Of a stretch of DNA of 59,691 bases, positions 6,001 to 32,220 are shown in pieces. Both the position numbers and the translations under genes were made by a program. A model generated the notes under the pieces. That model was not told the DNA's origin. It searched no databases and saw only the letters and a program-made list of their open reading frames with translations. The stretch's first letter is position 1; the number at the start of each line of letters is the position of its first letter. This stretch comes from Psammoneis japonica (lineage: Eukaryota). The stretch spans positions 124,001 to 183,691 of the forward strand of contig QPGO01000154.1 in NCBI GenBank assembly GCA_008632985.1, in the 5' to 3' direction.

Positions 6001-8490
6001 ACAAAAGACAGAGACTCCAAGGAGGGCAAGGAGTTTGAAAAGTGGTGTGCGGAGATCAAGAAAAGCAAGCACGAGAAGTCTGGAGAAGCAAAAAAGAAGA
6101 AGAAGACAGCGCCGGCCGGCGACACGGAGAAGGTGAAGGCAATGAACAGCCCAATGGTGGAGAGCAGCAGGGATGATGACAGTGACGATGATGAGCAGGA
6201 GGTGGGCGCAAAAGGCAAAATGAACAATGGAGGAGACGAGTCCGATGGAGACGAGTCCGATGGAGACAAGTCCGATGATGATTGTCAGCTCAGTTCAAGA
6301 GAGTTGCCACAAGAAAATGTGCACACAGTTGACATGGCACTCGGTCATTGCACTGCAGACGCAACAAGGGATTGACTTGGCCGATGAAGCGCTTTTCTTG
6401 TTTAAAATGATGTTTGTGAAAATTGACAAACCAAGGTTTGTGTGGCAATGCAATCATGCATTGGCATGTGGCAACAAGGTGGAGGCAGAAATGGCGATGT
6501 GGACACAGTGAAAACAGCACACACAATTCTTGACAAGTTGTTGCAATGTTGGCACACCAAACTTGCAACCAGAGGTTGGCCTGTCACCACATGACAATGA
6601 TGTTTTGCAACATTTTGACAAATTGTCATCATGTGAATCTGCGCGATTTTAACATTTCGTGCACTCTGATGTGCCAGCACAAAGGGGCAGTCTCCAGTGC
6701 CGAGGCCTGTGCCACACTGGTTGACGAGACTGCAGCTTTCCTCTCTTCTCATGAGAGCAGGCTGCAGTTCATTGCCTGTCCTCACAACTCGCCACCACCG
6801 GTTGGGAAGGCTCTTAAAGCGATTGAAGGCAGCATTTCCTTTGGCATTTTTGATGAAGCACACGACATGGAAGGAGCAGGAAGACTGTTTGGATGCAGTC
6901 TCTGCAGTGTGTGTTTCGTTTCTTCCAGCTGACCGCCAACTTTCCTGCCAGAAACTCCTCCTCGGTGCAAGCAGAAGTCTCCACAACAAATCACCGTTTT
7001 GAGGTTCCAAGCTTGACAAGCACTGCGTGCAAAACACTCTTGTCAAAGAGGGAAGAGACCACTCATTGCCTCTCGGGCATTGGGAGCCTCGTCGCTGAAG
7101 TGCTCTTTGGGCCGTGCATCAAACCACGGAAGCTGGGAGGAAGCACAGAGCTGAACATTGCAGCCCCCATTTCACAATGTGTTTTGGAGCAGAGGAGGTC
7201 AGTGAGCACCCACGTGTCGATGCCAGCCAACTCTCCAAAGATGCCTTTGTGCCTTTTGCATTCCAAGTGGCTTTCCATGCATCAAATGCAAGCCATGCTG
7301 TGCCGCTCCACTCTGCCAATGCACGAGCATGGTCTTTTGTGGACTCAACTAGAACGGTGTTGATGGAGGACATTTCTGCATTTGTTGAACGCAACAACAA
7401 GCTGCAAAGAACAGGAAAATGAAAAGCAAGTCGCAGGAAGAGGCTGGAGGAGATTGGAGCACACGCGGCAAGAAAAAGAGACGCACTTTGTTGCCAAAAT
7501 GCCAACGCGTGGGTGCGGCCGAATGGCTTTTGACTGTGCGGTGCTCCAAGATGAACTGGCCACGTGTGCTCCATGACAGTGGCTGCCGACAGCCAGATCC
7601 TGCCATCCAATGCAATCACACTGACACTCCAGACAAAAACTGCACGACAGCTTCAAGCCAGCCCTGCACTGCAAGACATCACCCCTTCCTTGTCACACAC
7701 GTTTGACGCCTGACCCAATTCACTGCATCGCTCAGATTGGGGCACAAGGAGCGTGGCGGAGTGGTGCAAGCAAAGATTGTCAAATGACGTGTGATGTGCG
7801 GATGTTGTTGGGACATGCTCGAACAATCACAGCCGAGCACATCAAATGCTTCTGTGCCACTGATGGCAGGTGATGTGATGCGGGCAGTGCTGCAATGCCT
7901 GCAGCGGGTGATGATGATTGATTCCAGGCAGATTTCTCCATCAAATGTGTCCACCTGATCATCTTCTGACGTCAAACGCGTGCTTTTCGCAACTTTCTGC
8001 GCAGAGCGCAAGGTGCCCCATGTGTCCCGAAGAAGTGTCAGCTGAGCTGCTTTGTCAGTGTCGTGTTGCTCAAAGGCAGCAGTCAAGCGGCAGCATCAAT
8101 GCGGTTGTTTTGACCCGCAGCTTCTCTTTCATCATGGATCTTGTGCTTGGTGCTTTTTTGTTGAAGGCAGACCTCGGTCTGCCGATCGTGCTGTGCTCCG
8201 AGTCTGGCAACAGCGGAGCACACACAGAGCAAACAGACAATGGGACACTCAGTGGCGCACTTGCATTTGGCTGAAACCAAGCAGAAGCAGCAGAAACTGG
8301 GGCCATCATGGTGTGTTCGATCGTTTCGCGTTTGGCGTTGAAAATGAGAAATGAGCGCGTTCGATCATCGAGACACGACACTGCAACTTGAGGTTAGCCG
8401 GCGGCGCGGCTGACGCGGAAGTTTGGCGCCAAATTTCCCGGAAATTTCGCGCATGCGCCAAATTCACAATCTCCTGCCCTCTTCGCTTCA
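1..8490. other. TpA-depleted degraded repeat/TE-like block with broken ORFs (family not identified)
   Basis: TA is almost absent over 8.5 kb. Overlapping Tyr-free, Cys/His-rich ORFs occur in all frames. Several + strand ORF fragments look protein-like (3248-4135, 4943-6375), but I see no recognisable transposase motif. Confidence 0.6.
6546..7140 (+). pseudogene. Possible superfamily-2 helicase fragment (DEAH motif II)
   Basis: SFGIFDEAHDMEG in ORF 6546-6932, followed in another frame by FRFFQLTAN (motif III TAT-like) and EVLFGPCI. No Walker A motif is recognisable. Confidence 0.35.
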
Positions 8491-10469: not shown

Positions 10470-12500
10470 TGAATGTCGAAAAGACATTTTGACTCACGGG
10501 GCCGGCAATGTCAATGTGGGCAAGGGCTTCTTCTTCTTGCTCACAAAGTTCTGCAAAAAGAGTGCGGCCGTAATGGCCCTGCCATGGTGAGTGCTGCAAT
10601 TCTTCAAATCTGCAAATCTTGCTTTCCAGCTGGTCATTGCACTCCTTGGCCATTTGGCACTCTTCATGCCTTGTCTCCAGTGGCTTTGGATGTGCTGTCA
10701 AGATCTTTGGCCAAGAAGTCATTGTCAGTCCAAACACCACAAATCTGTTTCCCATGGTGATCCACACAATTGTGGTGAGAGTGGTCAGTTCAATGATGGA
10801 CTTGCACTCCATCTCCTTGTCAGCAAAGACCAAGGCATCCACTGCAGTGAGTCCTCCTTTGGCATCAGCATTGACAACTTCAGCAGTCTTGCCATTTGAA
10901 GCCATCAAGACATCACCAGGACCGTGGCATGACCATCAATCATGTGCTGAAAAGATGGAGAGCAACACAGAAAGGTTGAACAATGGTGTGGCGTGAGGGA
11001 TTGAAGTGGGTCATTGCACAGCATTTCACTCACCTTGCACATGCTGCCATGATGAAATGCACCTTGACACCTGCCAGGGGCTCCATTGCAGCCATGGTCC
11101 CCCCAGCTGCTCCAAGAACAGCAGCCACACCAGCCACTGCAATCAATTTTCATTTGCTCCATCATGGATGATGTCTTGACATTGCACTCACCTGAAAGAC
11201 CAAGCATTGTGGTGAAAAGAGTTGGCGCAAAAGCCATTCCTGGCAAAATGGCAGGTGCAAAAAAGTGCTGCAAATCTCTTGTTTTAACACACCTGCAACA
11301 AAAAGCAGATGCCTTCTCCAATGATTCCTGCTTTTGTCTTTGTTTCTCCACACTGCTGGGTGGTGGAGCACACATCAAATGAATGAATTCCAAGTCCATT
11401 TCACCACACAGCACCACACTGAGCCTCACGCCTCACAATTTGTGTTCTGTTTTGCTGAGAGTGTTGCACTTGTTGACATGGTCCGCTGGATTCTGAAGAA
11501 CAATGTGCTTGGCCACATCAGCCAGACTCTCTGAAATTGGCACATTGTGTTGTGCGTTGACAATGTCTTTTTTCAATGTGAGCTTGTGGCATTTTACACT
11601 GCAAAGACTCGACATGGCAGAGCATGCAATCAAGCAGCAATTGGATTTGCAAATTTCTGAATTGTGAGAACAAAAGCTGGGCTGCTCAGAGGCCAACAAC
11701 CAAAGAAAGAAAACAAAAAGTGGCTTGTCTTTGCGCCGCCACAAGCCAGAAAACAGACGAACAAAACACGCCAAAGACTTGCCAGGAAAGAGAAGCTCTT
11801 GGTTGCACAAAACAAGAAGAGGTCGGGATCCACCCTTGTTTTGAGCCTTGGACCTCAAGAGGTGTTGGTTGTTTGATCTTTGGTTGGTTGAGAGGTTGAC
11901 GGCGGTCTTTGTGGCGGTCTTTGTGGCGCTCACAGCTCTTGAGGCATGTTGGCGTGTGGGGCGCCACAACTCCGCAACAAGTTGTTTTGCAGACTCTGCA
12001 ACAGAACACAATGTTTGAGAAACCTTGTCCTTCAAGGAAGGTTTTCACAATGTCCGTGATGTTGTGGACATCTGCATCATTGTGGAGCCCACAGCCTCGC
12101 TGCGGACTCTCCAAAACGACTGTTGTGTGCAAGCCTGCCCAGACAGCAAAACAAACCATCACACAGTGCTTGGCAAAACCTCATCCTCAAAGGAAGGTTT
12201 CCACAATGTCCACAACATTGCAGACATCTGCAATGTCATGTCCTGGAATCCACGACATTGTTGCGGGGATTTTGCAACAAATGCAAGCAACACGCTCACT
12301 TCCCCCTGGAGCACTCATTCCAAATTTGACGCTGCTTCTCAGATGGGGCAGGCTGCCAACCAATAAGATGGGCTGGGAACCACTCATGTTTGTCTTGAGA
12401 GCCTCACGTGTGCCATTTATTCAATTAGATAAAGCCACAGAGTGGATGCTCCTGGCACTGCCTTTTGCATTTCAGTGGTCGTCGAGACCAAACGGAAGGG
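10470..12500. other. TpA-depleted and partly CpG-depleted degraded repeat block
   Basis: Near absence of TA. It contains an internal diverged duplicate (about 12025-12080 vs 12180-12235) that differs by TG/CA swaps. Confidence 0.6.
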
Positions 12501-12577
12501 AGAGTCACGAATGTGGACTGCCACACAGACACACAGACACACAGACAATGCGACAAGCGCAACAATCTGAAATCCCG

Positions 12578-12759
12578 CGAATGAATGCCGATGTGGCCGC
12601 GTGGGGCAATGACAGCACCTCAAGCCTGAGAGCAGCAGTGACAAACCAAAGAGAACCCTGTGTCGATTAGATCGCACAAGATTGTGGGAAAGAACAAACC
12701 ACCAGATCGTGCGCGTCAGCCCCGGACCAGGGACTGACCGCTCCACCCAGATTTGCTCG
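12578..12759 (-). repeat. 3' LTR of copia element 1 (mutated copy)
   Basis: Aligns without gaps to 19231-19412. It is preceded on the minus strand by GCGGGGAC (weak PPT-like tract). Confidence 0.93.
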
Positions 12760-12842
12760 GTCCCCGCGAAACGGCAGTGACAACGCCGATTCGTCTAAAC
12801 CTGGAACATCCTCTCATAGAGAGGCAAACACAAAACCCAAAT

Positions 12843-15800
12843 TCAGACCACCAGCAATGCTGGCTTGGGAGGCCGAAAACACGTGGGCGCGAGCTGCAGG
12901 TGTCTGGCCTTGGTGTCGGGGCTCTGCCAAAAGACACAAGAGCAAAGTTTCCAACGCCGCTCTCCCGTCGTCACCTTTGTAAACAAATCCGCCAAATTCG
13001 TGTCCGTGTCCTCCTTCCCGACGCGAACAATGCCAGCCGCAACCGCTTCACGAACCAAATGACAGTTGATGGCATTGTGCTTCTTGTGCAGCACAGATTC
13101 CGGAACACTGACGTTCTTCACCACGCCGCGGTTGTCACAAAATACATTGGCAGGGCCTTCAATCGGTGCTCCAAACATGCGAAGTTTGCAATGCAAAGCA
13201 ACAATCAACTCCTTGCAAGTGCGCATCGCAACCAATTCGCCACCAAACGTCGCCGACTCCACTGTGTTCTGCTGCTTGCTAAACCAAATGATCGGAGCAT
13301 TGTTCACGAATGTCAAAATCCCGCCATGCGACCTGCGAGCAACAACGTTTCCCGCATGGTTAGCGTCAACAAATGCAGACACATTTGCTGGGTTGCCACG
13401 GGGCTTGGGCATCCGTGGCGGCAACTCCTCCTCAACGTCCCCGCAAAACTCCGTCCAGTCTGCAGCAGGGTTGAAAACAGATTCGTCAATCACAGGCATC
13501 TTCGGGTCAAAACCAATGCGACCAACATTCAAGTGCTTCTTCATGCACGCGAACACGTGGCACAACGCTTCGAGGTGCCCTTTCCTTGGGTTGGCTTGGT
13601 GCTGAGAGAGAATGGAAACTTCATGCAAGACATCGACACGGCCCAACTCGATCGCCCAACGACAAATGCCAATCAACTGCAAATGCCTGTCTGCCAAATC
13701 GGGTCCCAACTCGTCCGTTGCGTCTAATTCCGGCTTGTGCTTAGAAGGCAGTGGGTCCCTCACATTGTTCTTCAAGACTGCTCCATCACCGTCCTCTTCT
13801 AATGGCCCTTCCACCGTCTTGATCGCCGACTTGACACACGACTTCGGTGAGCTTGCCCAAATGGTGCGCCCATCTTCGGTCTGAACCTTCTCGACGTGGG
13901 CTCCAAGGTGTGACGATGGCTCTCCTTCACTCCCAGGTTTGACAGCAAATGATTCACCTGTGCTCTCGACAATGGATTTTCCTTGATGAGAAATGATTGG
14001 AATGTCGTCAACACAAACCAAAAGCATTTCATAATGCTCATGCCCATCGTCGCGAGTTGCCGCACGAACATGAATGTCGGGATCCGCCTTCGTTGATTCA
14101 AAACCCATGTTCCATAAAACCGATGCCAATGCGGACCTCCAAGAGTGTCCAGAGCTCTTCAAACCGCGCAGCGCTCGAGTCACAACTAGAACCTTGCCTT
14201 GGCACTCTCCACATTCCCTGCCACCTTCGAACCAGATCTTCTCCGCACACGGGGCATTCAAGTGCGCGTTCTCCAGGTCGACAGCCGCAATGTCCACTCC
14301 ATTCAATGCTGCCAGCAGGAATCCTAACCGTGCACTGTCCCTCGAAACAACACTTGAGCATGTGATCGATGATGGTGTTTCCGCAGTGTGACCTCCTGCA
14401 ACAAATCTGGCCTTCCCAGTGAAATCCATCTTTACGTCGAATGCCAAATGGCACCTGATCTCCTGATGACCACGCAAAGTTGTGCTCTTGCCTTCCCGGA
14501 CGACTTGAGGGGTTTCAGCTTCATGTTCGCACCACGCCATCTTGACCTTGTTCATCTCCTCATCAATTGCACGAGCCCAACAGTCCGTCCCCGTTTCCTG
14601 GTCAATCTTCAAAGCATCTTCCGTAGACTTGGGTAAACGTGTGCCGAACTTGTGGGCAGTGCGCCGGTGTTTCTTCTTAACCTTCAAGATGATGCGATTC
14701 CGCTTGCGCAAAACATGTGTGACCCACCAAGCAAACGCCGGTTCTTCGGTTAACCTGTTCGCTGCAGCATGCTCAGCAAGTTCAATCGGGTTAGACTCCT
14801 TCAGATCCTTGAGTTTCACCCACGACGCGCTGCCGTCCTTCCATGCGACCAACAGGTTCCATCCTTTCGTAGTTGTCTTCTCATGTTCGTTCCCGTCAGC
14901 TGTCTGAACTGTTCCTTCCTGGATCGGTGTAGCTTCGCCGGTCTTTTCGTGATCCTGTGTCTCCTGTAAAATGGAACACTGGTTGCCTTCGCTGTCAACT
15001 TGAGCAAACACATTCTCCGCGATCACATTGGCAGTGTGCTTGTCTCTGGCACCGTCTGTGCACTCAATCTCATGTTCGCGGGTGTCAAACAATGGATTCT
15101 GATGCCGGGTTCCAATCGGTCGCCCATCCTGACCTCGTGCCCGCTTGACTGCGACTCCTCGCCGTTCAGCGTTAGTCCCAACATCAAACACAAGTTCCAT
15201 TCCGAGATGTTGATCAATTGCCTGTTTGTCGTCGTCCTCGGGTCGTTCTCCTGGCAATGACATGTCCCCGCACTCCTCATCGGTTGGTGTCACACCGCCT
15301 TCACATTCCACGCCGGGGTTGCCGTCGATCGCCAAATCATCCAATGCAAATGCTGGTGCCGCTTCGTCGCCTTGTAAAACGAAATTGGTGTCATCTAACC
15401 GTGCCTCCAGTTGTTCGTTAAACTTGTCGACTTTCACATGAATGTCCGGCTGCACCATGTCGGCCTGCGTTACATGCTCGACCGAAGTCTTCGAAACCAT
15501 CTTCCCGGATTCCGTGACAATCCAATGACACATGTCCGATCCGACCTTGTGAGACACACCAAGCCATCGTCCAAGCCTCCTCGGGTCATCTGTTGCATTC
15601 GGCTTGTCGTGTCTGTCCCACCACCAGACCAGATCACAGAAACCGAAGTCCAAATGCTCGCCTGTTTCGGGTGTCTGACCAGTTGCCTCTTCACACCCAG
15701 TCCGTTTGTCGCGGCCTCTTGCCATGCGAGATACAAGTTCCGATTCACAAACTAGACCAAAATCCCACAATCGTTTCGGTGCCTTCTTCCTCGTCATCCG

Positions 15801-17246
15801 CAGGCGCCAACGCTTGGCCAAGAATCCGATCTCTCTTTCTGCTGCGTGATTCTGATTCTTACGACCTTGTTCCATTGTCCTGAGTTGGATCCTCATTCGA
15901 CGTGCGTGTTTCACAAACTCGGTGCTTCGTCCTGTGAACTCTCCAGCACCATCCGACATGAGATGCTCCGGCACTCCCACATCGTCTGTAAAGTCAACGA
16001 GAGACAAACCTGCCTCCGACCTTGTGGTCATTGGCACAACCTTTACAAACTTGCCCTGAGTGTGAACATTGGCACAAGTGTTGCCGAGCAAAGACTTCAC
16101 CTTGGATGTTAACGTGTCCACAAACCATGTCCCTTTTAATCTTTTCCGATGCAGGTCCAAGTGATCCACCCTAACTCTCCTTGACATTGGTTGGGTCGCC
16201 GTCCGCACACCGCGCTGTGCAGTTACATTGAGAGTGTCCTTAGCCGTTTCCAAGCCGACGTTCCACTTTCGTGCTAGCTCTTCAGCGTCGATCTTGGAGT
16301 GACAGTCCTTGCTGCGTAATTCCTCAACCGCTCTTGCTCTTTCGTCTGCGTCTGACCTGCACGCGCAAGCTGCGTTGACTGAACTGATGAGCCTGTCACA
16401 AAAGGATTGAAGATGATAGACTGGAGACAATCGAGTGAGTTCAGCTTCAACCTCGCCCCATTGGACTGCTTGAGACTTGGCCCTGTCGCTCTTCATTTCT
16501 GAAATCTGTTCCTGTCTCATGCCAGATGTCATCGAACGGACAGCACGCATCTCAGATTGCTCCCTTGTGCGCTGTGGCAAACCCATGTCGACTTCCGTTG
16601 GACTCCATGCGTTTCCTGTTAGCAGTGTTACTGGCAAGTTCTTCTCCTCCCAATCCGTCGGAACACGAGACTTGAAAGACACAATTGTCCCCGTGGAATT
16701 GAAAGGTGTGAAAGCTTCATCAGCTTCGACTCCAAACCCATTTCGAGTGTTGTAAGGGTTGTCGTGTGCGGGTGTGTCACACGCTCGCAACTGATTGGGG
16801 TTCAACAATGAATGCTGCATGTCAGTTCCAAACCACAGCATTTGGTCTCCAACCAGCAAGCACTCGCGAGTCGTTTCCGGATCCGTCCACACTGCGCAAC
16901 AACGCGCCACAGGAATCTGTTTAACCGGCTCACACAAATCTAGAAACGGGTGCACTTCACAGACTTCGTTTGTCAATTCCATGAGTTTCCAGTTGGTGCC
17001 AGCACAACAAGTGTCCGCATGAGTGTCACATTCGTTCCTCACCATGAAGCCGGGTGTCGTTAAGTTCGTCATCGCGGTGGCAGTCGTTGACCTTGTCACA
17101 CGTTTCGAAGTCACAGCAATGCGCCTTTTCGTTACCTTCTCTTGCAAATGAAACATTGGGTGGGGTTTAGTTAACAACATGATGAGCAACATGAATGCAA
17201 ATGATGTGTGTGCCAAGTGCGCCAACGCTCCCGTAGTTGAAACCAC
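12843..17246 (-). pseudogene. Copia pol polyprotein (protease, integrase, RT, RNase H), open frame but catalytically damaged
   Basis: DTHADTCCAG (PR), SDGAGEF...QNHAAERE (IN), KARFVAGGH, LRGLKSSG and CVDD (RT; normally LYGLK and YVDD), VDANHAG, CDN and NLADLFTK (RH). I find only 3 Tyr in 1467 aa. Confidence 0.92.
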
Positions 17247-17255
17247 CCCGATCAG

Positions 17256-18782
17256 TCAAACATGACCTTGACAGGCCCCTCGACCAAAAGCGCGCCCATT
17301 CCTGCCACCACGATCACGGTCAGCTCCGCGACCGCGGCCACCGTTTTCACCTTGCGCTTGACCTTGCTGCCCTTGACCTTGACGGTCTTGAACCTGAGCT
17401 TCGGCTGCTTGCCTGTTGCCTCCGTCGCGTCCGCCTCTTCCTGTGGGGTTTCCTCGACCACCGCGTCCGTGCATCCTTTCACGAGCTTGAAAAACACAAT
17501 TGAGACCTCCGTTAAAGCGCAATCTGTCCCATTCCTGGTCGGCAAATGTCCTCGTAGGATCCGACACATCGACTCCATTGATCACAGTTGTGCGATCACC
17601 GCCCCTTCCTTGATGTCCTCCGCGTCCTCCACCGCGGCCAAATCTGCCGCCACGCCCACGACCGCCGCGATGAAAACCTCGGCCACCACCACCGCCACCT
17701 CGGCTGATCTGAGAAATCTTGCGCTTTGTGCAATGCCAGGCTTCCAACTGAGCACCTGCACGCAAACGAGAGACTTCGGATGAGAAACAAGCACACGCCC
17801 CCGCGAAGTCACGAGGGCGCTGGTTGCTGATGACGGCCGCAGCCGCCACAAGACGGGCATCCTCCGATTTGACACCCTTCTGTGACATTTCAACCTTCTG
17901 CCGAGCAGACATGCTTTCATCCGGAACCTTGTCCAAAGTGGCAAAGGCACTGGTGAGTTTCTCCGTGAATTTCTCAAACGCAAGTGCACCTTCCTTTTTG
18001 TAGAGTGACGTTTCGACATTGGCCTTGGCCAAATGAACTCGCTTGCTCAATTCGCCTTCGCCATTGTGATGGTTGACCCAGGCCCAGAATGCTTCGCATC
18101 CATTCTCTGTTGCGTCACATGGTTTAATCCAAGCCCAACCAGCCGCATCAATCAAACACTCTTTTAACATGCGACACACGTGACGATCATCCACATCAAA
18201 CGCATCTCCGGCGAGCGGCAACTGATGCATGCGCTCCTCCTGATTGTCCGCGAACTCCGCCGGTGCAGGCATCCTCCTCGCGACATGTTTCAACGGCTCC
18301 TTAAGTGCACCAAGCTTCTGCGCCAACAAGTTCAAGAAAGCGTCTTCACACACGTCAAAATCTTCCGCTTTGAATTTGGTGAGGCTGTCAACCGTCGCAG
18401 TGGATTCCGCAAACTCCTTTTCAATGCGCCTGCCGTCCCTGGCCGCCGCCACAGCTGCAATGTTAAAATTCACCGCGACCAGTGGCTGGTTCCGTTTCGT
18501 TAAATCTCTCAACCACCAAACCAACGCCTGTGAGTTCTCAATCTGCATCATCCCTGGCGTCACGCGTCCATCGGCTGCTGTACGACGAGCCGCCCTTTGG
18601 GCTAGATCCTCAACATCATGGTCCGTTTCCATGACAGCAACATTCTCAAGAGCAGCAAACCCTTCATGGAAAACAAGCCTCGCCCCAGCGTGTTGGTCAA
18701 CAACACCACAAACTTGCAATGCCGCGTCTGCGTCAGCCGCCGCGGCCAAAGCCGCAAGTGCCACTGCTGGTGCCGCTGCCAT
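17256..18782 (-). pseudogene. Copia gag-like ORF
   Basis: 508-aa ORF immediately upstream of pol in a different frame, with an RGG-rich basic C-terminus and only one Tyr. Confidence 0.8.
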
Positions 18783-19216
18783 CCCATGAAAAGAGAAACA
18801 GAGGCAATGACCCGTGCAATGGGTCGCAATTTGGTGTGAGTGCGCATGGCACAGGAGGCCACACCGACCGGTGCCGTGACAACGGGTTCACGCAGCCAAC
18901 CGACTTCGGGGTGATCAATCCCGTGTCGTTTCCATCGTGAGCACACGCTCGGGCATGCCACCCAATGCCGCAATCGTTCCACACCCATTAACAACATGGA
19001 GATGGTGACTGTTTTGCGAGTATTTTCCGTTGCAAGCTGTTTCCTTTGGTCGTCATATGCGACACAGAGCACACGCTGCACGCGACAACCCCCTTTCGAC
19101 GCTACGCGTACGAATCAGTACATTTTCTACAGCTGCTCGTTCCATGCACACAATCACAACAATCAACCGTTTACAACGAGTTGTTTCCTTATCCGTTTCG
19201 TTCAGCTTTTCATCAA

Positions 19217-19230
19217 TGGCTCTGATAAAG
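19217..19230 (-). other. Primer binding site (initiator tRNA-Met-like)
   Basis: The minus strand reads CTTTATCAGAGCCA directly after the 5' LTR. The canonical Met PBS is TGGTATCAGAGC(CA). Confidence 0.75.
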
Positions 19231-19412
19231 CGAATAAATACCGATGTAGCCGCGTGGGGTAATGATAGTACCTTAAGCCTAAGAGTAGTAGTGACAAACC
19301 AAAGAGAACCCTGTGTCGATTAGATCGTATAAGATTGTGGGAAAGAACAAACCACCAGATCGTGCGCGTCAGCCCCGGACCAGGGACTGACCGCTCCACC
19401 CAGATTTACTCG
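19231..19412 (-). repeat. 5' LTR of copia element 1 (unmutated copy)
   Basis: Retains 14 TpA sites. It has short inverted termini CGAATAAAT...ATTTACTCG. Confidence 0.93.
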
Positions 19413-19754
19413 CCCGAAGTCACCACGCAAGAACCCAAAAAAAAACCGTGACTGAACAGGAGACAACTACAACTCTCGAGTAGGAAGGCATTTCAATTCT
19501 GCATACTGTCACAGATCCTATTCGAATTTGTGATATACCCCGTATTTGAAGAGAGAAAGGTAAGAAGCTAAATTCACCGCAAGAAATTGCTGAAACGATG
19601 CGGCAATCACAATGTCGGAACACGGAACGTTCTCGAAACACGACCCAGCTCCATCCAGCGTTTTCAAGTCGACTTTATCGCTGATTACCTTGACTGTGTC
19701 TCATATTGTAACACTTTCTGGAACTGCGACTTATTAGGAAGAGTAGTAAGAAGT

Positions 19755-20429
19755 ATGAATCGCGTCTTTGGAAAGAAGAAAGCCCCTGGTCCGCCCCCTC
19801 CCTCGCTCGATGAGACCTCTTCTGGCATGGGTGGACGCATAGACTCGATGGATGCAAAGATTATGAGTCTCGAAAAGGAGCTCAAGGGGTACAAGGATAA
19901 GATAAAAAAGACGAAGAGTCCCGCTGCAAAGAAAGGTCTCCAGAAACGTGCTATGGAAGTGTTGAAGCGGAAGCGTATGTATGAAGGCCAGCGTGATCAG
20001 ATGGCTGCGCAGCAGTTCAACGTGGACCAAGTCGCCTTCAATATGGAAAGTGCCAAGGCGTCTGTTGCGACAGTGGCGTCTCTGAAAGCAGCCAATAAGG
20101 ATCTTAAGCGCACGCTCAAGAAGGATCTCGATATTGATGAAGTGGATGATCTTGCGGACGATATGGCGGAGTTGATGGACGATTTCAATGAAATCAACGA
20201 GGCTCTGGGACAGAACTTTGCCACACCGGAGGATCTAGACGAAGCGGATCTAGACGCAGAACTGGAAATGCTAGAGGATGAATGGGAAGAGGAGGAAGAA
20301 GAAGTGGCTGATGCAACGCCAACTTATCTGTCTGAACCTGCCCTACCGGCACAACCCACAGGCGTACCTGGCGCCTCTACTCCAGCTGCTGTGGATGAGT
20401 TTGGACTTCCAATGGCGCAGACCGGATAA
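19755..20429 (+). CDS. VPS60: ESCRT-III Snf7-family protein, VPS60/CHMP5
   Basis: MNRVFGKKK start, KRAMEVLKRKRMYE, QQFNVDQ, EINEALG, DEADLDAELE and a C-terminal VDEFGLP. Confidence 0.92.
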   Translation: MNRVFGKKKAPGPPPPSLDETSSGMGGRIDSMDAKIMSLEKELKGYKDKIKKTKSPAAKKGLQKRAMEVLKRKRMYEGQRDQMAAQQFNVDQVAFNMESAKASVATVASLKAANKDLKRTLKKDLDIDEVDDLADDMAELMDDFNEINEALGQNFATPEDLDEADLDAELEMLEDEWEEEEEEVADATPTYLSEPALPAQPTGVPGASTPAAVDEFGLPMAQTG

Positions 20430-20576
20430 AGGAGAATACCAGAAACTGGCTGTTATCAATGTTGTACATCCTACAATATTAAAACTACATACCACAGTGT
20501 AAGCAACGCTGTTGTTGACTAAAATCAGTTTCACACTAACAACACCCTCAACTAACTAAAAACTCGCAACCCCCGT

Positions 20577-23510
20577 TCAAAAGCTTCGTGAAATGACACG
20601 CCTGACCGTATCTAGCTGGTAGCCAGCTTCTCCAAACGCGTCGCTCCTGCAAAACTCCGAGACGTCGTAAATCCTCCTGTCTCTCGCCCTGCCTTCCAAT
20701 TCATCCAGCGGCACTTCCAGAGTATCGAGTTCTCCGGGATCGGTCTCTCCCCTCTGCCTCTGCCTCTGCCGAATGACTTGATACATTTGCTCATTGCGAA
20801 ACATTTCTTGCAAAATGTGAAGGAGCAAATGAGCCCGATCCTCGCCCGTGCTGATAAACTTGGCAAAGCTCTTCTTGAGGGTTCGGCGAACACTAAACTT
20901 TTGAGCCGTAATAAAACTCTCCAGCATCATTCGGATACTGGCATCCATATCGTCGTCTCGAACGTACTCTCGCAAATGCATCTTGGCGTGGGCTTCAGCC
21001 ATTCGCATAATGGATTCGATATGACGAACAGCAATCGGGACACCGCCCGAGGCTGCCGATTCTTTTCGCAGCGCCACGTATAAGGATGCAATCTTTTCTT
21101 GATCAAACGTGTTGCCACGCAACACGGGACGGACATTGCTGCGGGCATACTGAATGTACTTGCGCAAGAGATCCTGCGGAATCACTCCCGGCTTGTCGTG
21201 CAAAGGCGACTCCGCCACGGGAAGTTCTGCACCACGAGCCACCTCGCTGGTGGGGATACTACGCATGTGACTTGCAGTAACAAACATTGCCAAGCGTTCG
21301 TCGGCAACGGGATCCACGGTATCTTGAAGGACACACAAAACGTCAAAGCGCTGTAAAATGGGGTCCGTGAGCTCCACATTTTCCGCCAAGGTGTTGGAAC
21401 TATCGTAGCGACCACCAATAGGGTTGGCCGCCGCAATGACAGAGCATCGTGCTTGGAGGGACGTCACAATACCAGCCTTGGAAACGGAAATACTCTGCTG
21501 TTCCATGGCTTCATGAATACTGGTTCGGTCTTGCTCGTTCATCTTGTCAAACTCGTCAATCAAGCACACACCCCGATCCGCCAAGACAAGAGCTCCACCC
21601 TCCAGGGTCCACTCCTTGGTGATTGGATCCTTGTGAACACTAGCGGTAAGCCCAACCGCACTGGCACCCTTGCCCGTACTGTACACGGCACGAGGCGCCG
21701 TGTTTTCCGCATACTTTAACAATTGACTCTTTGCGGTTCCGGGATCACCCAGCAACAAGACATTGACATCACCACGGATACGGTGCTTGTCGTCAATGTT
21801 TTTGGGGACGGCTCCAAACAAGCTCATGGCCAAGGCCATTTTGCAAAAGTCGTGTCCATAGATGCTTGGCGCAATGCTTTGCACAATCCGATCACCAATA
21901 TGTGGATCACGGGCCAGCTCGAGGATTTGCTGAATATCGGCTTCGGACAGATTAAACGTACTGGACTCGTCTTCCCGCTTGCGAACATGATTGGCCGTGA
22001 TGAATGTGGAAAAGACGGGAAATCCCGACTTGAGCGTCAAAGACGAGTCGTATGTGTGCTCGTAAACACCCGTGACTTCCACTTCTTCTCCGGGACGAGC
22101 CACGTCAATCAGATCGTCCGTCAAGAGCACCTCCTTGGTACGAGGGACACGTCCGGGCGGGACACTTCCTGGAGTCTCTTGCAGATTGACTCTCTGAAAG
22201 TTGCGATACTGCGACTTGGTGGGATGCAGCTTGAAGGCTGTGCCTTCTTCACAAAAGGAACACGAGTCCGGAGTATAACTCGCCGCAAGTCCTCCGCCGT
22301 GTCCGTCGACGCGAAAGGGTCCTTGGACTCCCTTGCAAGCCATACACGTGTAATAGGCCATTTGGAGTTGTGGGTACACCGAAGAACGGCGCGTGACAAC
22401 GCCGTGCACCTTGACGAGGCAATCCAAGTGCGAGCGGCGCAAATCGCGAAGAGAATCGAGAATGGGCACTTCGGCAATACGAACGCGAATCTCGCTCTTG
22501 ATAGCGTTGTAGGACGGAAACATGGCAAGCGTATGGCGAGTCGCAGCCTCGTTTAGCACATCCAGCATGTCTCGGGGAGCATCCGTGACCCAAAAGGCCA
22601 AGACCGGCTCTGCCTCCATCAAGTGTAGATAGGATACTTGAAGTGTCTGAAGATTGGAAGCACACATGGCTCGAATGCGCTGTTCGTAGATTCCATTTCC
22701 GTTGCGCCTGCGATTGTGCGTCACGTCACTCTCGACAATGAAATTGCGCAAAAAGAGCCGAAACTTGCGCTGCACTTCGCGTCTCGTGCGGTCTTGAGCA
22801 ATCCACTCTCGCAGCGGCACATCAAAGGCTTCCAAATTCACCAAGTCGTCTCCATCCAGATCGTCTTCATCTTGATCCTCCTCTTGTTCTTCTTCTCCGT
22901 CTTCATCTTGAGCTCGCGAAAACATACCACGCCTTGCCCTCCGGGCGTCCTCGTCTTCGTCTTGCTCAAAGTCATCGAGACGTCCATAAAATCCGTCATT
23001 ACGTCCTGACCGTTCTCTGTCTCGACGCAAAAGTTCTTGTTCGGCCGCACGGCGTTGATCCACATCCATAGCATCATAATCACGGTCATCAAGTCCTTCT
23101 GTACCGTAGGTATCGAGCGCGTCAATGCGTTGATAATCGCGCTCGGCATTCTCCATCAAGTCTTCGCCCTCTCCTTCTTCGAGTTCAAGGCCCTGAAGAT
23201 AATCCGCATCGTCGTCATCCTGCTCATTATCCTCGTCGTTATTACCCATATCGACGTCATCCACAGCGGTCGTATCGGCAGCGTCATAACCATTGTCACC
23301 GGGAAAGAGCGTCGGAGGCTCTTCTTCTTGTTGTTGACGTTGGCTACGTACCAGAGCCGCACGTCGTGCCAGACGAGCCGCTCGACTTTCCTCTGGTGGA
23401 CTATCGTTGTCGCTGTTGTTTAAATCATCGTCATCCTCTTCATCTTCTACTTCGATACGACGACGCTTTGGCTCGTGTGGGGAGCCTTCTTCTTCTTCTT
23501 GAGACGCCAT
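20577..23510 (-). CDS. MCM2: DNA replication licensing factor MCM2
   Basis: 977-aa ORF with an acidic N-terminus containing MENAERDYQRIDALDTY, a Zn finger, LLGDPGTAKSQ (Walker A), CLIDEFDKM and IAVRHIES. Confidence 0.97.
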   Translation of the reverse strand: MASQEEEEGSPHEPKRRRIEVEDEEDDDDLNNSDNDSPPEESRAARLARRAALVRSQRQQQEEEPPTLFPGDNGYDAADTTAVDDVDMGNNDEDNEQDDDDADYLQGLELEEGEGEDLMENAERDYQRIDALDTYGTEGLDDRDYDAMDVDQRRAAEQELLRRDRERSGRNDGFYGRLDDFEQDEDEDARRARRGMFSRAQDEDGEEEQEEDQDEDDLDGDDLVNLEAFDVPLREWIAQDRTRREVQRKFRLFLRNFIVESDVTHNRRRNGNGIYEQRIRAMCASNLQTLQVSYLHLMEAEPVLAFWVTDAPRDMLDVLNEAATRHTLAMFPSYNAIKSEIRVRIAEVPILDSLRDLRRSHLDCLVKVHGVVTRRSSVYPQLQMAYYTCMACKGVQGPFRVDGHGGGLAASYTPDSCSFCEEGTAFKLHPTKSQYRNFQRVNLQETPGSVPPGRVPRTKEVLLTDDLIDVARPGEEVEVTGVYEHTYDSSLTLKSGFPVFSTFITANHVRKREDESSTFNLSEADIQQILELARDPHIGDRIVQSIAPSIYGHDFCKMALAMSLFGAVPKNIDDKHRIRGDVNVLLLGDPGTAKSQLLKYAENTAPRAVYSTGKGASAVGLTASVHKDPITKEWTLEGGALVLADRGVCLIDEFDKMNEQDRTSIHEAMEQQSISVSKAGIVTSLQARCSVIAAANPIGGRYDSSNTLAENVELTDPILQRFDVLCVLQDTVDPVADERLAMFVTASHMRSIPTSEVARGAELPVAESPLHDKPGVIPQDLLRKYIQYARSNVRPVLRGNTFDQEKIASLYVALRKESAASGGVPIAVRHIESIMRMAEAHAKMHLREYVRDDDMDASIRMMLESFITAQKFSVRRTLKKSFAKFISTGEDRAHLLLHILQEMFRNEQMYQVIRQRQRQRGETDPGELDTLEVPLDELEGRARDRRIYDVSEFCRSDAFGEAGYQLDTVRRVISRSF

Positions 23511-23886
23511 GGTGTCGCTGTTGGGTGTTGCTGTGATGACGCTGGATTTTTTGTCAAAACGAAAATGGCGCGCCTCCCACCGACGACGGCAAGATGGAAG
23601 AGTCGAATGATTCAGCCGTCATTTGCCGTTAAGATGTGTAGCTTCATTACTCATTTCTACAGAAGTACATGTCAGTATTAAATCTACGAAGGGTTCGGGT
23701 ATTTCGCAAAAGGCCAAAATGGGCGAGCGCCTCTTCCGTACTAATCTCAAGTATATTTCTACATACATGTTTCCAGTACAAAACATTCGTAGCTGTCGAT
23801 TCGAACGGTCGCGTGTTGTTTTGCACAAGAATGACCGGCATTTTTCGGTGTTGCTGTTGGAGTCACACTCCGAAAGTCTTTTCACC

Positions 23887-25854
23887 ATGACGACGACGTT
23901 GTTTACTGGCGTCGCTTCTGCGGCTTTGCTGCTGCTAAGTAGTACTATTACAACATGCTCTGGCTTTTACATTCCCGGAGTGGCGCCCTTGACGTTTGAG
24001 AGAGGCGCAGACGTGCCTATGAAGGTGAACGCCATGACGTCTATCCACACGCAAATCCCCAAGGATTATTACCGTCTCCCCTTTTGCAAGCCTGCCAATG
24101 GTCCGAAAATGGCGTCTGAGAATCTCGGAGAATTTCTGACTGGAAACAAGATTCAGAACTCACCGTATACCCTCAATATGCTCACAGAAGCCTACTGCAC
24201 CAAGCTCTGTCAGGTGGAACTCTCCAAGTACACGGCGGCCCAACTGGCCCTCCACATCAAGTACGGATACCACAACAACTGGATCATTGACAACCTCCCC
24301 TCTGCGTCTGTCGGACTAACTGCGGCGGGACAGAGACAGAAACACTACGCTGGAGGCTTTCCAATCGGTTTCATGGATACCAAAACTAAGGATGCCTATG
24401 TCTACAACCACGTCAATATCATTGTTGATTACCACCAAGTCGATCCTGCAGTGGAAGGATACCGTGTTGTCGGCTTCTCGGTGGAGCCCATGAGTATTCA
24501 CCACGAGTTCCAAGGCGGATACGAGTGGGACGGTGAGGAACCCGAGGGATTCTCCAAGAACTTGGAAACGTGCAGTCCGGGGCAGCACATGGTGCGCACC
24601 ATGATTACCGCCAATCAAGTTGTCAAGGCTGATGAAAAGATACTGTACACCTACGATGTGACCTGGAAGGAGAGTGATATTCCATGGGCGTCTCGTTGGG
24701 ATACCTACTTGAATGAAGATCATCTTGTTCCTGCTCAAGTGCACTGGTATTCCATTACCAACTCGATTCTCGTTGTGCTCTTCTTGTCGCTCTTGGTGGT
24801 TTCCATTCTAGTGCGAAACTTACGTCGTGACATTGCTGCCTACAACACCATTGCGGCTCTTGCCGATGAAGAGAATGACGAGGAAGTAGACGAGACGGGA
24901 TGGAAGTTGGTTCACGCGGACGTGTTCCGTCCTCCCTCGTCGTATCCCATGATGTACTGCGTCTTTGTGGGAACGGGTGTGCAGTTGGCTTTTACCGTGC
25001 TCTTGTCCATTATCTTTTCCGCCATTGGATTCTTATCACCGGCTCGCCGTGGCTCTCTCATGATTGCCTGTCTGGTCTTTTACATGCTTTGCGGTGTTGC
25101 TGCCGGAGCTGTGAGCAGTCGTCTCTACAAGTCCTTCCGCGGAAGGCAGTGGCAGCTCTGTACCGTCTTGACGGCAGTGGCCTTTCCGGGACTTACCTTT
25201 GGACTCTTTTTGTTTTTCAACATTATTCTCTTCTTCTTCCATTCTTCGGCGTCGGTGCCATTTTTGGATATCATTATTTTGGTGGCCATGTGGGGATGTG
25301 TCTCGATTCCTCTTGTCTTTTTGGGAGCCTACTTTGGATACAAGGCGGAACCCATTTCCTTTCCCACCGTCACGTCTACGATTGCTCGGGCCATTCCAGA
25401 GCCGCAGCCTCTTTTGCATCCCATGGTGGGCATGACGGTTACCGGGCTTGTTCCCTTTGCCGCCGCCTATGTCGAGCTCTTCTTCATCATGACGTCCTTG
25501 TGGATGGACCAATTCTACTACGTGTTTGGGTTTACGCTCATTGTCTACATGATTCTTGTCATTACGTGCGCTGAAGTCACAGTCTTGCTGGTTTATTACC
25601 AATTGTGCGCTGAGAATCACAGGTGGTGGTGGTTTGCCTTTTTTGCGTCGGGCAGCACGGGATTGTACACCTTTTTGTACAGTTTCTTATGGTTCCGCAG
25701 TTTGGAGGCATCACGAATGCTCATAACGTATCTCTTGTACTTTGGGTACATGTTTCTCATATCGACCGCTCTGGCATTGGTTTGCGGAATGGTGGGAGCA
25801 CTTTCGTCGCTCTGGTTTGTACGCAAGATTTTCTCCAGCATCAAAGTGGATTAA
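23887..25854 (+). CDS. Transmembrane 9 superfamily (EMP70/nonaspanin) protein, intact copy
   Basis: Signal peptide followed by FYIPGVAP, ENLGEFL, ETGWKLVHADVFRPP, ENHRWWW and a C-terminal IKVD. Confidence 0.95.
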   Translation: MTTTLFTGVASAALLLLSSTITTCSGFYIPGVAPLTFERGADVPMKVNAMTSIHTQIPKDYYRLPFCKPANGPKMASENLGEFLTGNKIQNSPYTLNMLTEAYCTKLCQVELSKYTAAQLALHIKYGYHNNWIIDNLPSASVGLTAAGQRQKHYAGGFPIGFMDTKTKDAYVYNHVNIIVDYHQVDPAVEGYRVVGFSVEPMSIHHEFQGGYEWDGEEPEGFSKNLETCSPGQHMVRTMITANQVVKADEKILYTYDVTWKESDIPWASRWDTYLNEDHLVPAQVHWYSITNSILVVLFLSLLVVSILVRNLRRDIAAYNTIAALADEENDEEVDETGWKLVHADVFRPPSSYPMMYCVFVGTGVQLAFTVLLSIIFSAIGFLSPARRGSLMIACLVFYMLCGVAAGAVSSRLYKSFRGRQWQLCTVLTAVAFPGLTFGLFLFFNIILFFFHSSASVPFLDIIILVAMWGCVSIPLVFLGAYFGYKAEPISFPTVTSTIARAIPEPQPLLHPMVGMTVTGLVPFAAAYVELFFIMTSLWMDQFYYVFGFTLIVYMILVITCAEVTVLLVYYQLCAENHRWWWFAFFASGSTGLYTFLYSFLWFRSLEASRMLITYLLYFGYMFLISTALALVCGMVGALSSLWFVRKIFSSIKVD

Positions 25855-26477
25855 TAAGCAGAGATTTGAGTATCTCTACTAGGGCTAGAGTTGTTGGGAT
25901 TACGATAAGGTGTAAAGCACAAGAAACTAGCCATGCATGTTATCCAATGAAGAGTGTTTGTTTTATTCTCCTGGTTAAAAGAGCAGCGAGGTTAGAGCGT
26001 ACATTGTGTGCAAAAGAAGAAGAGCAAGTGGGTTGATGGAACAAGACAACAACGTTGTTGAGCGCACACTACCTCCAAGTGCCAAAGTAGATGCCATGTG
26101 CCATCCACACTGGCAAAACCCCCACAAAGGTGACAAGTGCATCAGCAGTTGAAAACAGTGCAGGAAGCTCCCACTGCCTGTGACCCCAAAGTGGCAAAGA
26201 AGAGCGAGCAAATGCAAGAGCTTGTGACTCAATGCAAGGCAGCTGAGATTTGGCAAGGTGGTGTGGCTGCAGCAACAGCCAGTGAGTTGACTTGTGATTC
26301 AACCAGTGACAGCCAATGTTTGGCAGTGTGCATTGTTGTCACAGCAACAGCCAGTGAGTGGACTTGCAAAGCCTCAAAGTGGCAATGGTGTGAATGTGGC
26401 CTTTGCACATGGAGCAACTGCCATGACACACACAATGGCATCTTGTGTGTTGTTGACCTTCAAGCAACAATGCAACC

Positions 26478-26970
26478 AAGTTGTTTGTCAACAAACAAGA
26501 AGAAAGCAGTGGCACCAACGTCAAACATTCTTGCAAAGCCAAGGTTGCAGATCCACCAGCTGTGCTGCCAGGGAACAACAGGCCAAAGCATCAAATGAAA
26601 AGCACAGCTTGGTGAAAAAGAAGCCCAGCTGCAGCAAGTTTCCATGTTGCTGAAGAGGTGGAGAATGCTGTGGAGGAAAAAACTTGGTGTGCTCATGAGT
26701 TTGCCAACATCGTGCACAAACTTGCAAACAAGCCAACAAGCAGCAGCCCACCAGCCCAACAAAAGAGGATGTTGATCATCTCAGACACAGCTGCTGTGGT
26801 TGAGCCCCATTCTCACAACCACAGCATGTGTGTGACAAGTCATGGTGCCAGCAAAATGTTGGGCAAAACATTTCAGAAAAAGACAGCCAAAGCTGTGGTG
26901 AAAATTTGACAAGGTGCAGAGAAGGGTGAGGAAATGTGAGAGGTGAAAGCAGTTCTTGTTTTTTGTCATT
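26478..26970 (+). repeat. Dispersed repeat, homologous to about 36665-37170
   Basis: Shared blocks such as CAAGTTGTTTGTCAACAAACAA, GCAAAGCCAAGGTTGCAGATCCAC and AAGTCATGGTGCCAGCAAAA. Many differences are TG/CA swaps. Confidence 0.85.
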
Positions 26971-26977
26971 TCTCACA

Positions 26978-27177
26978 GAGTCAAAAAGGTTGGTCTGAAC
27001 CAGTGTTTTCTTGTCAGTCAAAAAGGTTGGTCTGAACCAACCTTTTCAAGTGAGTCTAAAAGGCTGGTCTGCTGAACCAAACCTTTTCAAGTGAGTCAAA
27101 AAGGTTTGGTCTGACCAACTTTTTCTTGTCAGTCAAAAAGGTTCCAACCGACATTTTGGGTGAGTCAAAAAGGTTGG
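26978..27177. repeat. Tandem array of about 6 units (about 32-41 bp) starting AGTCAAAAAGGTT, with internal dyad symmetry
   Basis: Repeated AGTCAAAAAGGTTGGTCTGAACCA. One unit reads AAAAGGTTGGT-CTGA-ACCAACCTTTT. Confidence 0.85.
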
Positions 27178-27179
27178 CA

Positions 27180-27438
27180 TGAGCAGGCCAACAGCTGCAA
27201 GGGGTCATCACACATCAGGGGAAGAAGGCAGAGAGATCAGGGTCATTGTCCAGCCACTCAAAGTTTTGTGGCAAGAGGTTGGCGTCATGCTGGGATTTCT
27301 TGTGTGTGATTCCCCAGTCCTTGGCATGGCAGAGGTGCCAAGCAATCCATTTCAGGGTGGAGCAGTGGATGTTGGTGGGGGCAGCAGAGAGCTTCAAGAG
27401 TGCTGTGATGGGGCATCCAACAACTGGGTGGCATGCCA

Positions 27439-27513
<75 letters not shown>

Positions 27514-29800: not shown

Positions 29801-30000
29801 GTGGGCAAACAGAGAACAAATGACAAGATGAGGCCCTCTGCCTGTTTCCCTTGTTGTTCTTGGCAGATGATTGGTGGTGATGGGAAGAGCTGCGGCAACC
29901 CAAAATGGTCCAACAATGATGGGGCCTTTGCTCCACTGATTGTTGCATTTCATGCATTCCACTGTGCACTGTGTTTGGTGTTGCTCTTCATTTTTCCTCT

Positions 30001-30102
30001 GTTGTTGTTGTTGTTGTTGTCGTCGTCGTCGTTGTTGTTGTCGTTGTTGTTGTCGTTGTCATTGTCATTGTTGTTGTCATTGTTGTTGTCATTGTTGTTG
30101 TT
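30001..30102. repeat. Compound (GTT/GTC/ATT)n trinucleotide repeat
   Basis: Visible directly in the sequence. Confidence 0.95.
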
Positions 30103-32050: not shown

Positions 32051-32220
32051 GCACAAAGGTGCACAGCGGCCCATCTGCTCAAAATCAATCACCACCCAAT
32101 CACTTTGCATGGCTCCTGGGCACTGTTCCAATGATGCACAAAGGTGCACAGCAGCCCATCTGCCCAAAATCAATCACCGCCCAGTCACTTTGCATGGCTC
32201 CTGGCACTGCTCCAATGATG
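32051..32220. repeat. Two-copy tandem direct repeat of about 85 bp
   Basis: GCACAAAGGTGCACAGC...CACTTTGCATGGCTCCTGG...CCAATGATG occurs twice. Confidence 0.85.

Follow-up and report, generated by a model that had tools for sequence, protein, structure and literature searches.

Loss of TpA dinucleotides and tyrosine codons from a copia-like retroelement of the diatom Psammoneis japonica whose gag-pol frame stays open

Results

Overview

We analysed a window of 59,691 nucleotides from Psammoneis japonica (NCBI GenBank assembly GCA_008632985.1, contig QPGO01000154.1, positions 124,001 to 183,691 of the forward strand; all positions below are those of the window). On its minus strand the window carries a complete copia-like (Ty1/copia-like) long terminal repeat (LTR) retroelement, here called element 1, in which most TpA dinucleotides have become TpG or CpA and nearly all conserved tyrosines of the encoded polyprotein have been lost, while the gag-pol frame is unbroken. 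The comparisons below show directly in which direction the change went, that it followed insertion and affected both strands, in what sequence context it occurred and that it created no new stop codons. Taken together, these findings very probably mean that element 1 is a very young insertion and that, once it had inserted, a local process acting at the DNA level rewrote its TpA sites, on either strand and site by site. The element 1 protein is almost certainly dead, to judge by its sequence.

Structure and relatives of element 1

The features of element 1 and of the rest of the window are collected in Table 1. A database search with the pol product retrieved 1349 relatives at E ≤ 1e-10; the best 25 covered 100% of residues 330–1440 at 57–67% identity, and some of them are named as Fragilaria crotonensis reverse transcriptases. 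Identity to the relative P0001 was 63.7% over 1425 aligned columns (67% by BLASTP), and a tblastn match of the relative P0021 extended over 18713–12933, which gives element 1 full-length gag-pol colinearity. According to tblastn with four relatives, element 1 and a second element (element 2, below) are the only copia copies in the window. Against Pfam, element 1 matched RVT_2 (PF07727) alone, at 42.7 bits with a cut-off of 31.6. Two intact relatives likewise matched RVT_2 alone (63.8 and 53.4 bits), so that a weak match to the profile is characteristic of this family; neither element 1 nor its intact relatives gave a Pfam match to an integrase domain. Beside the 5' LTR lies TATCAGAGCC, which we take to be a putative primer-binding site, as it resembles the initiator-tRNA-Met site of copia elements.

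Gag and pol of element 1 lie in a single frame, separated by one TGA. The same gag-TGA-CTN-pol layout was found in 10 of the 10 relatives' loci that hold gag (L002, L003, L006, L007, L008, L012, L029, L034, L035 and L046), and the in-frame TGA of element 1 is therefore native. From these sequences, the layout looks like programmed stop-codon read-through for gag-pol expression in this diatom copia clade.

Table 1 Features of the 59,691-nucleotide window from Psammoneis japonica.
Feature	Position	Strand	Remarks
Element 1, copia-like LTR retroelement	12577–19412	−	complete
Element 1, 3' LTR	12577–12759	−	mutated copy; 183-nt direct repeat of 19230–19412; 1 TA (in TTAG), 12 CG
Element 1, read-through tail	12843–12926	−	CAG at 12926–12924, 26 more codons, TGA at 12845–12843
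Element 1, VFWQ	12935–12924	−	CAG at 12926–12924
Element 1, pol	12927–17255	−	protease-integrase-reverse transcriptase-RNase H region, by colinearity with relatives of ~1400 amino acids
Element 1, INCHLVRE	13047–13070	−	Tyr in 97% of relatives, now Cys (TGT); family motif INYH
Element 1, CVDD	14004–14015	−	active-site box of the reverse transcriptase (TGT); YVDD in 93% of 60 relatives
Element 1, LRGLKSSG	14148–14171	−	Tyr in 98% of relatives, now Arg (CGC); family motif LYGLKS
Element 1, TGA between gag and pol	17256–17258	−	in frame; next codon CTG
Element 1, gag	17259–18782	−	508 codons from its ATG
Element 1, leader beside 5' LTR	18990–19229	−	spared, by TA density
Element 1, 5' LTR	19230–19412	−	unmutated copy; 14 TA, 12 CG
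Snf7-family gene, open reading frame	19572–20429	+	160 bases from the 5' LTR of element 1
MCM2 gene	20577–23618
EMP70 (TM9SF) gene and 5'-truncated second copy	23611–25854 and 34806–36023		10.2 kb apart
TA-free blocks	1–8000, 11001–12000, 26001–34000, 37001–40000		TA observed/expected 0.02–0.06; TG+CA observed/expected up to 2.0
Element 2, copia-like, other family	42973–50211	+	gag-pol in one frame, 43309–49959
Element 2, LTRs	42973–43203 and 49980–50211	+	231-nt repeats
Element 2, internal TGA stops	45538–45540, 47044–47046, 47416–47418	+	in relatives Arg in 33/40, Arg in 40/40, and Lys in 21 plus Arg in 13 of 40, respectively
Element 2, PHSLKQ	48742–48759	+	reverse transcriptase motif
Element 2, HVDD	48871–48882	+	reverse transcriptase motif
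Open reading frames over tandem arrays	51356–53704, 51513–53726, 51826–53811	both	several frames

Conserved tyrosines are replaced by cysteine and histidine

The pol open reading frame (ORF), taken from stop to stop (12843–17255, minus strand), contains 42 Cys and 58 His codons and only 3 Tyr codons (0.2%), the number given in an earlier note on this DNA, although its length is 1470 codons and not the 1467 stated there. Among 120 relatives of pol, the median contents were 3.46% Tyr, 1.18% Cys and 2.67% His, and none had less than 1.5% Tyr. Element 1 pol was aligned with its 60 best relatives using MAFFT, and columns with Tyr in at least 80% of the relatives were treated as conserved Tyr columns. 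This residue count, proposed in the earlier note, left one of 24 conserved tyrosines in place; the others read Cys (12; TGT or TGC), His (9; CAT or CAC), Arg (1; CGC) and Phe (1; TTT). The three altered motifs that the note had singled out (CVDD, LRGLKSSG and INCHLVRE) were all located at such positions. Columns conserved for other residues were 79–100% kept, save for Ile (58%), where the changes to Thr and Val are further products expected from the loss of TA. Gag has gone the same way, with 1 Tyr in element 1 compared to 12–16 in nine relatives; of its six conserved Tyr columns one was kept, three read Cys, one His and one Arg (CGC).

Over all 612 conserved pol columns, element 1 differed at 79. 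The differences included 44 amino-acid changes of the TpA type and 2 of the reverse type, and 40 of the 79 fit a single TpA hit at the codon level; the relatives had a median of 26 differences, with 3 of each type. One relative of pol from a public assembly, P0023, stood apart with 1.71% Tyr, 2.21% Cys and 3.91% His. It carries 15 TpA-type changes at conserved columns compared to the median of 3, and from its sequence it is probably a partly hypermutated copy that has been annotated as a protein.

LTR differences date the change to after insertion

The two LTRs of an element are identical at integration. In the 183-nt core of the element 1 LTRs there are 13 differences, every one of them a TA in the 5' LTR against TG (5) or CA (8) in the 3' LTR, and no difference of any other kind. 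TA thus falls from 14 in the 5' LTR to 1 in the 3' LTR, the TA kept in both being that of a TTAG, and CG stands at 12 in each. A wider local alignment gave 16 mismatches over 195 columns, the three extra ones falling in the last columns, outside clear homology. As the differences are confined to TA against TG or CA, the changes postdate insertion and took place within the genome, and as there is no ordinary substitution in 183 LTR bases, the TpA change was fast. The raw LTR divergence of 7.1% drops to 0% when TpA sites are set aside, which bears out the expectation that LTR dating would be inflated in such elements. The direction of change, TA to TG or CA, was argued in the earlier note from conserved motifs and is fixed here by two independent lines, the conserved Tyr columns, which read TGY or CAY, and the LTR differences (13 of 13).

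Sequence context, strands and extent of the change

In 12 intact relatives (pol ORF of at least 1200 codons), the median number of TA per 1000 codons was 31.5, 53.1 and 70.8 at codon positions 1–2, 2–3 and 3|1, respectively, compared to 2.0, 18.4 and 12.2 in element 1. On this basis ~227 TA would be expected in element 1 pol, of which 48 are present, corresponding to ~180 hits and ~79% of TA erased; the state before the change was derived from codon statistics of the relatives and not from a true ancestor, so that the hit count and the context factors that follow are estimates. Per-strand survival of TA depended on the 3' neighbour and was 0.07 for TAT, 0.33 for TAC, 0.83 for TAG and 0.92 for TAA (likelihood-ratio chi-square 60.9, 3 degrees of freedom), and a model with independent strands reproduced all ten NTAN classes. 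The few TA that survive in older TA-free blocks of the window follow the same order, with TTAA the commonest and no GTAC or ATAC/GTAT left. The preferred target is thus 5'-TAY-3', which is the Tyr codon, and this is why Tyr was lost to ~95% and TA overall to ~79%.

Strands were assigned to 57 hits, at columns conserved to at least 60%. On the coding strand they comprised 31 T>C and 26 A>G changes, and the two types followed one another in 33 runs where 29.3 were expected (runs test, P = 0.87); strand-coordinated clusters, considered as a possibility, were thus not found among these 57 hits. Hits on both strands without runs exclude editing of the plus-strand RNA or of a single cDNA strand as their source, and they also speak against long single-strand tracts.

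The mutated tract ends within element 1. TA density rises 5.6-fold from 60 TA in 12772–18988 (9.7 per kb) to 24 TA in 18989–19430 (54 per kb), placing the edge at ~18990–19020 and sparing ~230 bases of leader together with the whole 5' LTR. Leftward, the tract runs on into older DNA with a TA observed/expected ratio (o/e) of 0.03 and low CG. A duplicated LTR that is spared and an edge that ignores the limits of the element fit targeting by chromatin state better than recognition of repeats, and silent chromatin, rather than the repeat unit, may accordingly guide the TpA change.

These results bear on whether the element could have been edited before it integrated, either as RNA by an ADAR-like enzyme or as cDNA during reverse transcription. 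Hypermutated proviruses are known to arise through editing of retroelement RNA or cDNA. ADARs favour a 5' U, as stated in a preprint on Bigelowiella natans (Mettrop et al., bioRxiv 10.64898/2026.01.13.699255). Editing at that stage is nonetheless very unlikely here, since 13 TpA sites are the only places at which the LTRs differ, the tract both stops inside element 1 and continues into flanking DNA that does not belong to it, and the hits fall on both strands (31:26) without runs. The 3' preference of T>C>>G,A is also unlike the 3' G preference of ADAR.

The frame is open and its terminal stop is lost

The gag-pol frame of element 1 spans 2014 codons, and the native TGA is its only in-frame stop. 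At the far end, 44 of 60 relatives terminate exactly at the Trp that precedes the CAG of element 1 (12926–12924), and the frame of element 1 extends 27 codons beyond this family end. In the DNA of 22 relatives' loci, the codon at the CAG site is a stop throughout: TAG in 7, TAA in 4 and TGA in 11. As TAG>CAG is the sole one-step path from a stop to CAG, the suggestion of an ancestral TAG read through as CAG agrees with the family.

We enumerated the outcome of A>G after T and of T>C before A for every codon in every flanking context. Changes of TpA to TpG or CpA offer no path from a sense codon to a stop; acting on stops, they yield TGG or CAG from TAG, and CAA or TGA from TAA. In the same enumeration, changes of the type made by repeat-induced point mutation (RIP) create TAA and TAG out of CAA, CAG and TGG. 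In the present gag-pol ORF, stops would arise from 3.9% of all possible single-base changes, 2.8% of transitions and 5.3% of G:C>A:T transitions, so that 180 hits of these other kinds would be expected to make 5.1–9.5 stops, compared to none seen after ~180 TpA hits in pol. The frame of element 1 thus stays open because the TpA change cannot make a stop from a sense codon.

An open frame might also suggest that the Tyr-poor protein is a functional, lineage-specific variant from an active family that avoids TA, and 2014 codons interrupted by the native TGA alone would suit such a protein. We regard this as hardly credible. The changes took 23 of the 24 conserved Tyr columns, the YxDD box among them, and altered conserved columns three times as often as in the median relative (79 compared to 26); the native pol stop is gone, the same process is visible in the non-coding DNA of the LTRs, and the chemistry alone would keep the frame open without selection.

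Element 2

The second copia-like element, which belongs to another family, has undergone the same kind of loss. At 27 conserved Tyr columns it has kept 1 Tyr and reads Cys at 10, His at 10, Phe at 3 and Arg, Trp and Thr at 1 each, and the HVDD and PHSLKQ motifs ascribed to it in the earlier note are present. RVT_2 was matched at 116.1 bits, with gag_pre-integrs upstream of it at 23.4 bits, below the cut-off of 28.4. Its LTRs differ at 11 bases: 4 are TA against TG or CA, and 4 more make up two sites with TG against CA, which imply independent hits on opposite strands.

The absence of stop codons described in the earlier note holds for element 1 only, as the 2216-codon frame of element 2 has three internal TGA. 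CG o/e is already lowered in element 2 (0.65–0.89), and its TGA stops probably stem from CGA>TGA by ordinary CpG decay, added later, as the residues of the relatives at these codons suggest.

Depletion of TA in the host window

The window is diatom nuclear DNA. The best-matching named relatives of its MCM2 gene come from Amphora, Cylindrotheca, Nitzschia and Seminavis (75–79% identity), and the MCM2 protein, encoded adjacent to element 1, contains 27 Tyr among 1013 residues. By bin, TA o/e was 0.11–0.24 in element 1, 0.39–0.72 in the gene region (19001–26000) and 0.02–0.06 in older repeat blocks. With repeats at 0.02–0.24 overall, the host genes are spared, and the depletion is limited to foreign or repeat DNA.

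The TA-free blocks had no match to either copia family in tblastn with the four relatives as queries. CG o/e was 0.05–0.35 in three of the blocks and 0.43–0.73 in 1–8000. In the three large blocks, TGA made up 892 of the 954 stops in six frames, and the mean stop-to-stop run was 38.0 codons in TA-free blocks compared to 28.6 in gene-like DNA. A general six-frame inflation of ORFs was considered and found to be only modest; the effect is that old frames remain open, not that every frame does.

The two copies of the EMP70 gene were tried as a before-and-after pair and rejected, as the gene parts differ in ordinary ways. Doubles in which TG stands against CA are confined to the TA-free tail of the duplication; in the DNA behind the copies (26447–26970 compared to 36639–37174) they account for 34 mismatched bases, from which it follows that TA was lost independently in each copy, after the duplication.

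Further copies in reads and metagenomes

The Logan contigs of one DNA sequencing run (X1) covered 0.43 of the sampled words of element 1; no RNA run was listed as containing the element. X1 gave 1177 contig pieces, of which 235 were at least 99% alike to element 1, and 283 of 318 variant places were transitions. The 40 best-supported of these places were classified: 10 rows were TG-against-CA doubles (five sites), 7 were a single TA against TG or CA, 14 had TG or CA in the window and CG in other copies, 4 had CG in the window and TG or CA in other copies, and 5 were of other kinds. The family of element 1 is thus multi-copy and varies at pyrimidine-purine steps. Where other copies read CG and the window TG or CA, this copy may have lost a CpG, or the others may have gained CG from TA.

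No relative was recovered from a metagenome scan that used the pol of element 1 itself as query, and a scan with an alignment of 17 relatives found 61 loci, ~64–71% identical in DNA; at this distance they are unsuited to site-by-site ancestry and were used for codon and context statistics only. Two of them, L028 (1–1590) and L049 (1–1344), had a TA o/e of 0.26 and 0.25, respectively, with 0.4% and 1.9% Tyr in frames that are Tyr-poor and Cys/His-rich, compared to a TA o/e of 0.56–0.91 in the other 59. The two are 77% alike and differ by 16 CA/TG doubles over 992 columns, compared to 16 over 4504 and 14 over 3157 in two control pairs, which as a sign of the TpA process is suggestive only. The same process seems to act in uncultured diatoms.

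Both data sets, together with the duplicated DNA behind EMP70, help to judge whether the signature could be an artefact of sequencing or base calling, with a modification in silent chromatin making TA read as TG or CA. Modified bases do cause systematic errors on some sequencing platforms, and for neither the assembly nor run X1 is the type of library recorded. Such an error is a most improbable source, however: the k-mer contigs of X1 hold the closely matching pieces along with many variant copies that differ mainly by transitions, L028 and L049 come from other data sets and stand well below the remaining loci in TA, and at individual sites of duplicated DNA one copy has TG where its counterpart has CA.

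Other features of the window

Tandem arrays rich in GC, with repeat periods of 96 and 60 bases, occupy 52035–53712, beneath long ORFs on both strands; the one ORF searched had no Pfam match. An assembly gap of 471 N (58448–58918) lies within an ORF listed at 57540–58979.

Discussion

Proposed course of events

The explanation that we favour is that a young diatom copia element inserted and that its TpA sites were then rewritten in place. Proceeding fastest at 5'-TAY-3', the rewriting would have turned Tyr codons into Cys or His codons, and it would also convert ATA, GTA and CTA to Thr, Ala and Pro codons, and TAG and TAA stops to sense codons or TGA. Sense codons would never become stops, leaving the gag-pol frame open and even lengthening it. 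The tract would be regional, extending from the older repeat DNA on the left and ending ~230 bases inside element 1, near an active-looking gene.

Within this explanation, the chemistry may be deamination of adenine to hypoxanthine by a candidate TadA/ADAT2-like DNA deaminase, to which we would give slightly less than an even chance. Alternatively, the thymine of TpA (5'-RTA-3') could be modified, for example to 5-formyl- or 5-hydroxymethyluracil by a TET/JBP-like enzyme, and then mispair with G to give T>C; outcome and biology would be the same with a different enzyme family. 5-Formyluracil does mispair with G. A T>C change on one strand looks the same as an A>G change on its complement, and the strand symmetry (31:26) and the context model suit either base as the target. 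Attack on thymine is still unlikely, as nothing in the sequence specifically favours T, and the sole experimental report of the signature proposes an adenosine deaminase, albeit as no more than a candidate (10.64898/2026.01.13.699255).

Several points weigh against the rewriting of element 1 as we have described it. The sequence can tell neither the enzyme nor whether A or T was attacked. The state before the change was taken from relatives that are only 58–67% identical in protein and not from an unmutated copy of the family. No target-site duplication was recognised at the ends of the element 1 LTRs (no matching 5-bp flanks). Two conserved Tyr positions read Arg as CGC (pol codon 1030, within 14148–14171, and gag codon 322), that is, TAC with both bases changed, which a strictly TpA-limited, sequential process does not predict. 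Finally, X1 is possibly the sample behind the window assembly and is then not independent proof against a sequencing artefact.

Comparison with known systems

The only report of a TpA signature that our full-text literature search found is the preprint on B. natans; it found nothing on diatoms. According to that preprint, integrated giant-virus and virophage DNA in mutation-accumulation lines mutated ~1000 times faster than the rest, with changes that were almost only A>G/T>C and all at TpA, and an ADAT2-like protein was proposed, not shown, as the agent (Mettrop et al., bioRxiv 10.64898/2026.01.13.699255). The likeness to element 1 lies in A>G/T>C changes only, located at TpA and confined to foreign DNA, with the rest of the genome normal. 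The hosts differ (a diatom, thus a stramenopile, here and a chlorarachniophyte there), as do the targets, which here are LTR retrotransposons and whole silent regions and there giant-virus and virophage DNA. The preference for TAY was measured here, and the B. natans process was watched arising in culture, whereas ours is deduced from end states. The same source lists 324 predicted coding sequences with very low TpA in B. natans, enriched for reverse-transcriptase and DDE domains (10.64898/2026.01.13.699255); these fit frames that stay open, a point that the preprint does not make. The main text contains none of the strings 'stop codon', 'tyrosine', 'nonsense', 'open reading', 'trinucleotide', 'flanking', 'neighbo' and 'context' (10.64898/2026.01.13.699255). 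New in this window are the TAY preference, the proof, borne out in element 1, that no stops can be made, the loss of the terminal stop, a tract that ends within the element and the inflation of the LTR clock from 0 to 7.1%.

RIP, known from Neurospora and other fungi, likewise hypermutates DNA locally by transitions, disabling transposons in the genome and leaving its signature in dinucleotides. Its chemistry is the opposite: CpA becomes TpA, TA is enriched, GC is lowered, and TAA and TAG stops arise from CAA, CAG and TGG, whereas in element 1 TA is erased, GC goes up, and stops are removed and none made. RIP is also triggered by duplication, and the duplicated 5' LTR of element 1 is untouched, although 183 nt is perhaps not long enough to qualify as a repeat. 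In the part accessible, a study of diatom DNA methyltransferases refers to RIP only by way of the relationship of DNMT4 to RID.

Deaminase-type transition hypermutation of retroelements in a dinucleotide context is shared with the APOBEC3 and ADAR systems, and proviruses edited by APOBEC are dead as well. Both APOBEC3 (G>A) and ADAR (A>G) edit cDNA or RNA at a stage that precedes integration and are strand-specific, and APOBEC3G makes stops (TGG>TAG). In contrast, the changes in element 1 are post-integration, affect both strands (31:26) and make no stops. Decay of CpG by deamination of 5-methylcytosine also ends in TG or CA and acts on the same silent DNA (CG o/e of 0.05–0.2 in old blocks). 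It is slower here, as element 1 has lost ~79% of its TA with CG o/e still at 0.83–1.09 (bins 13001–19000), and unlike the TpA change it can make stops (CGA>TGA).

Implications

Because stop codons are the usual sign of death and none are made here, pipelines would be expected to mis-call dead TpA-mutated elements as 'intact' or 'autonomous', and gene finders to predict proteins from dead DNA; with ~180 hits, element 1 keeps its LTRs, an unbroken gag-pol frame and a reverse transcriptase domain above the Pfam cut-off. For diatom genomes, a TpA-masked clock is needed to date insertions and reconstruct bursts. The preference for TAY, the action on both strands and the absence of strand runs provide criteria for recognising the responsible enzyme.

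We tentatively propose, at rather less than even odds, that diatoms have an undescribed genome-defence enzyme acting in silent chromatin, where it would deaminate the adenine of 5'-TAY-3' in duplex DNA, a 'reverse RIP'. If so, transposons would be killed before a single ordinary substitution appears in their LTRs, and the victims would persist as long open frames with Tyr replaced by Cys and His. The enzyme would be a natural adenine editor of double-stranded DNA, of practical interest. As a chlorarachniophyte and contigs of uncultured relatives carry this signature too, the system may be old and widespread in the lineages of stramenopiles, alveolates and rhizarians, and hypermutation that erases TA would stand beside RIP as a second, chemically opposite way of destroying mobile DNA in place.

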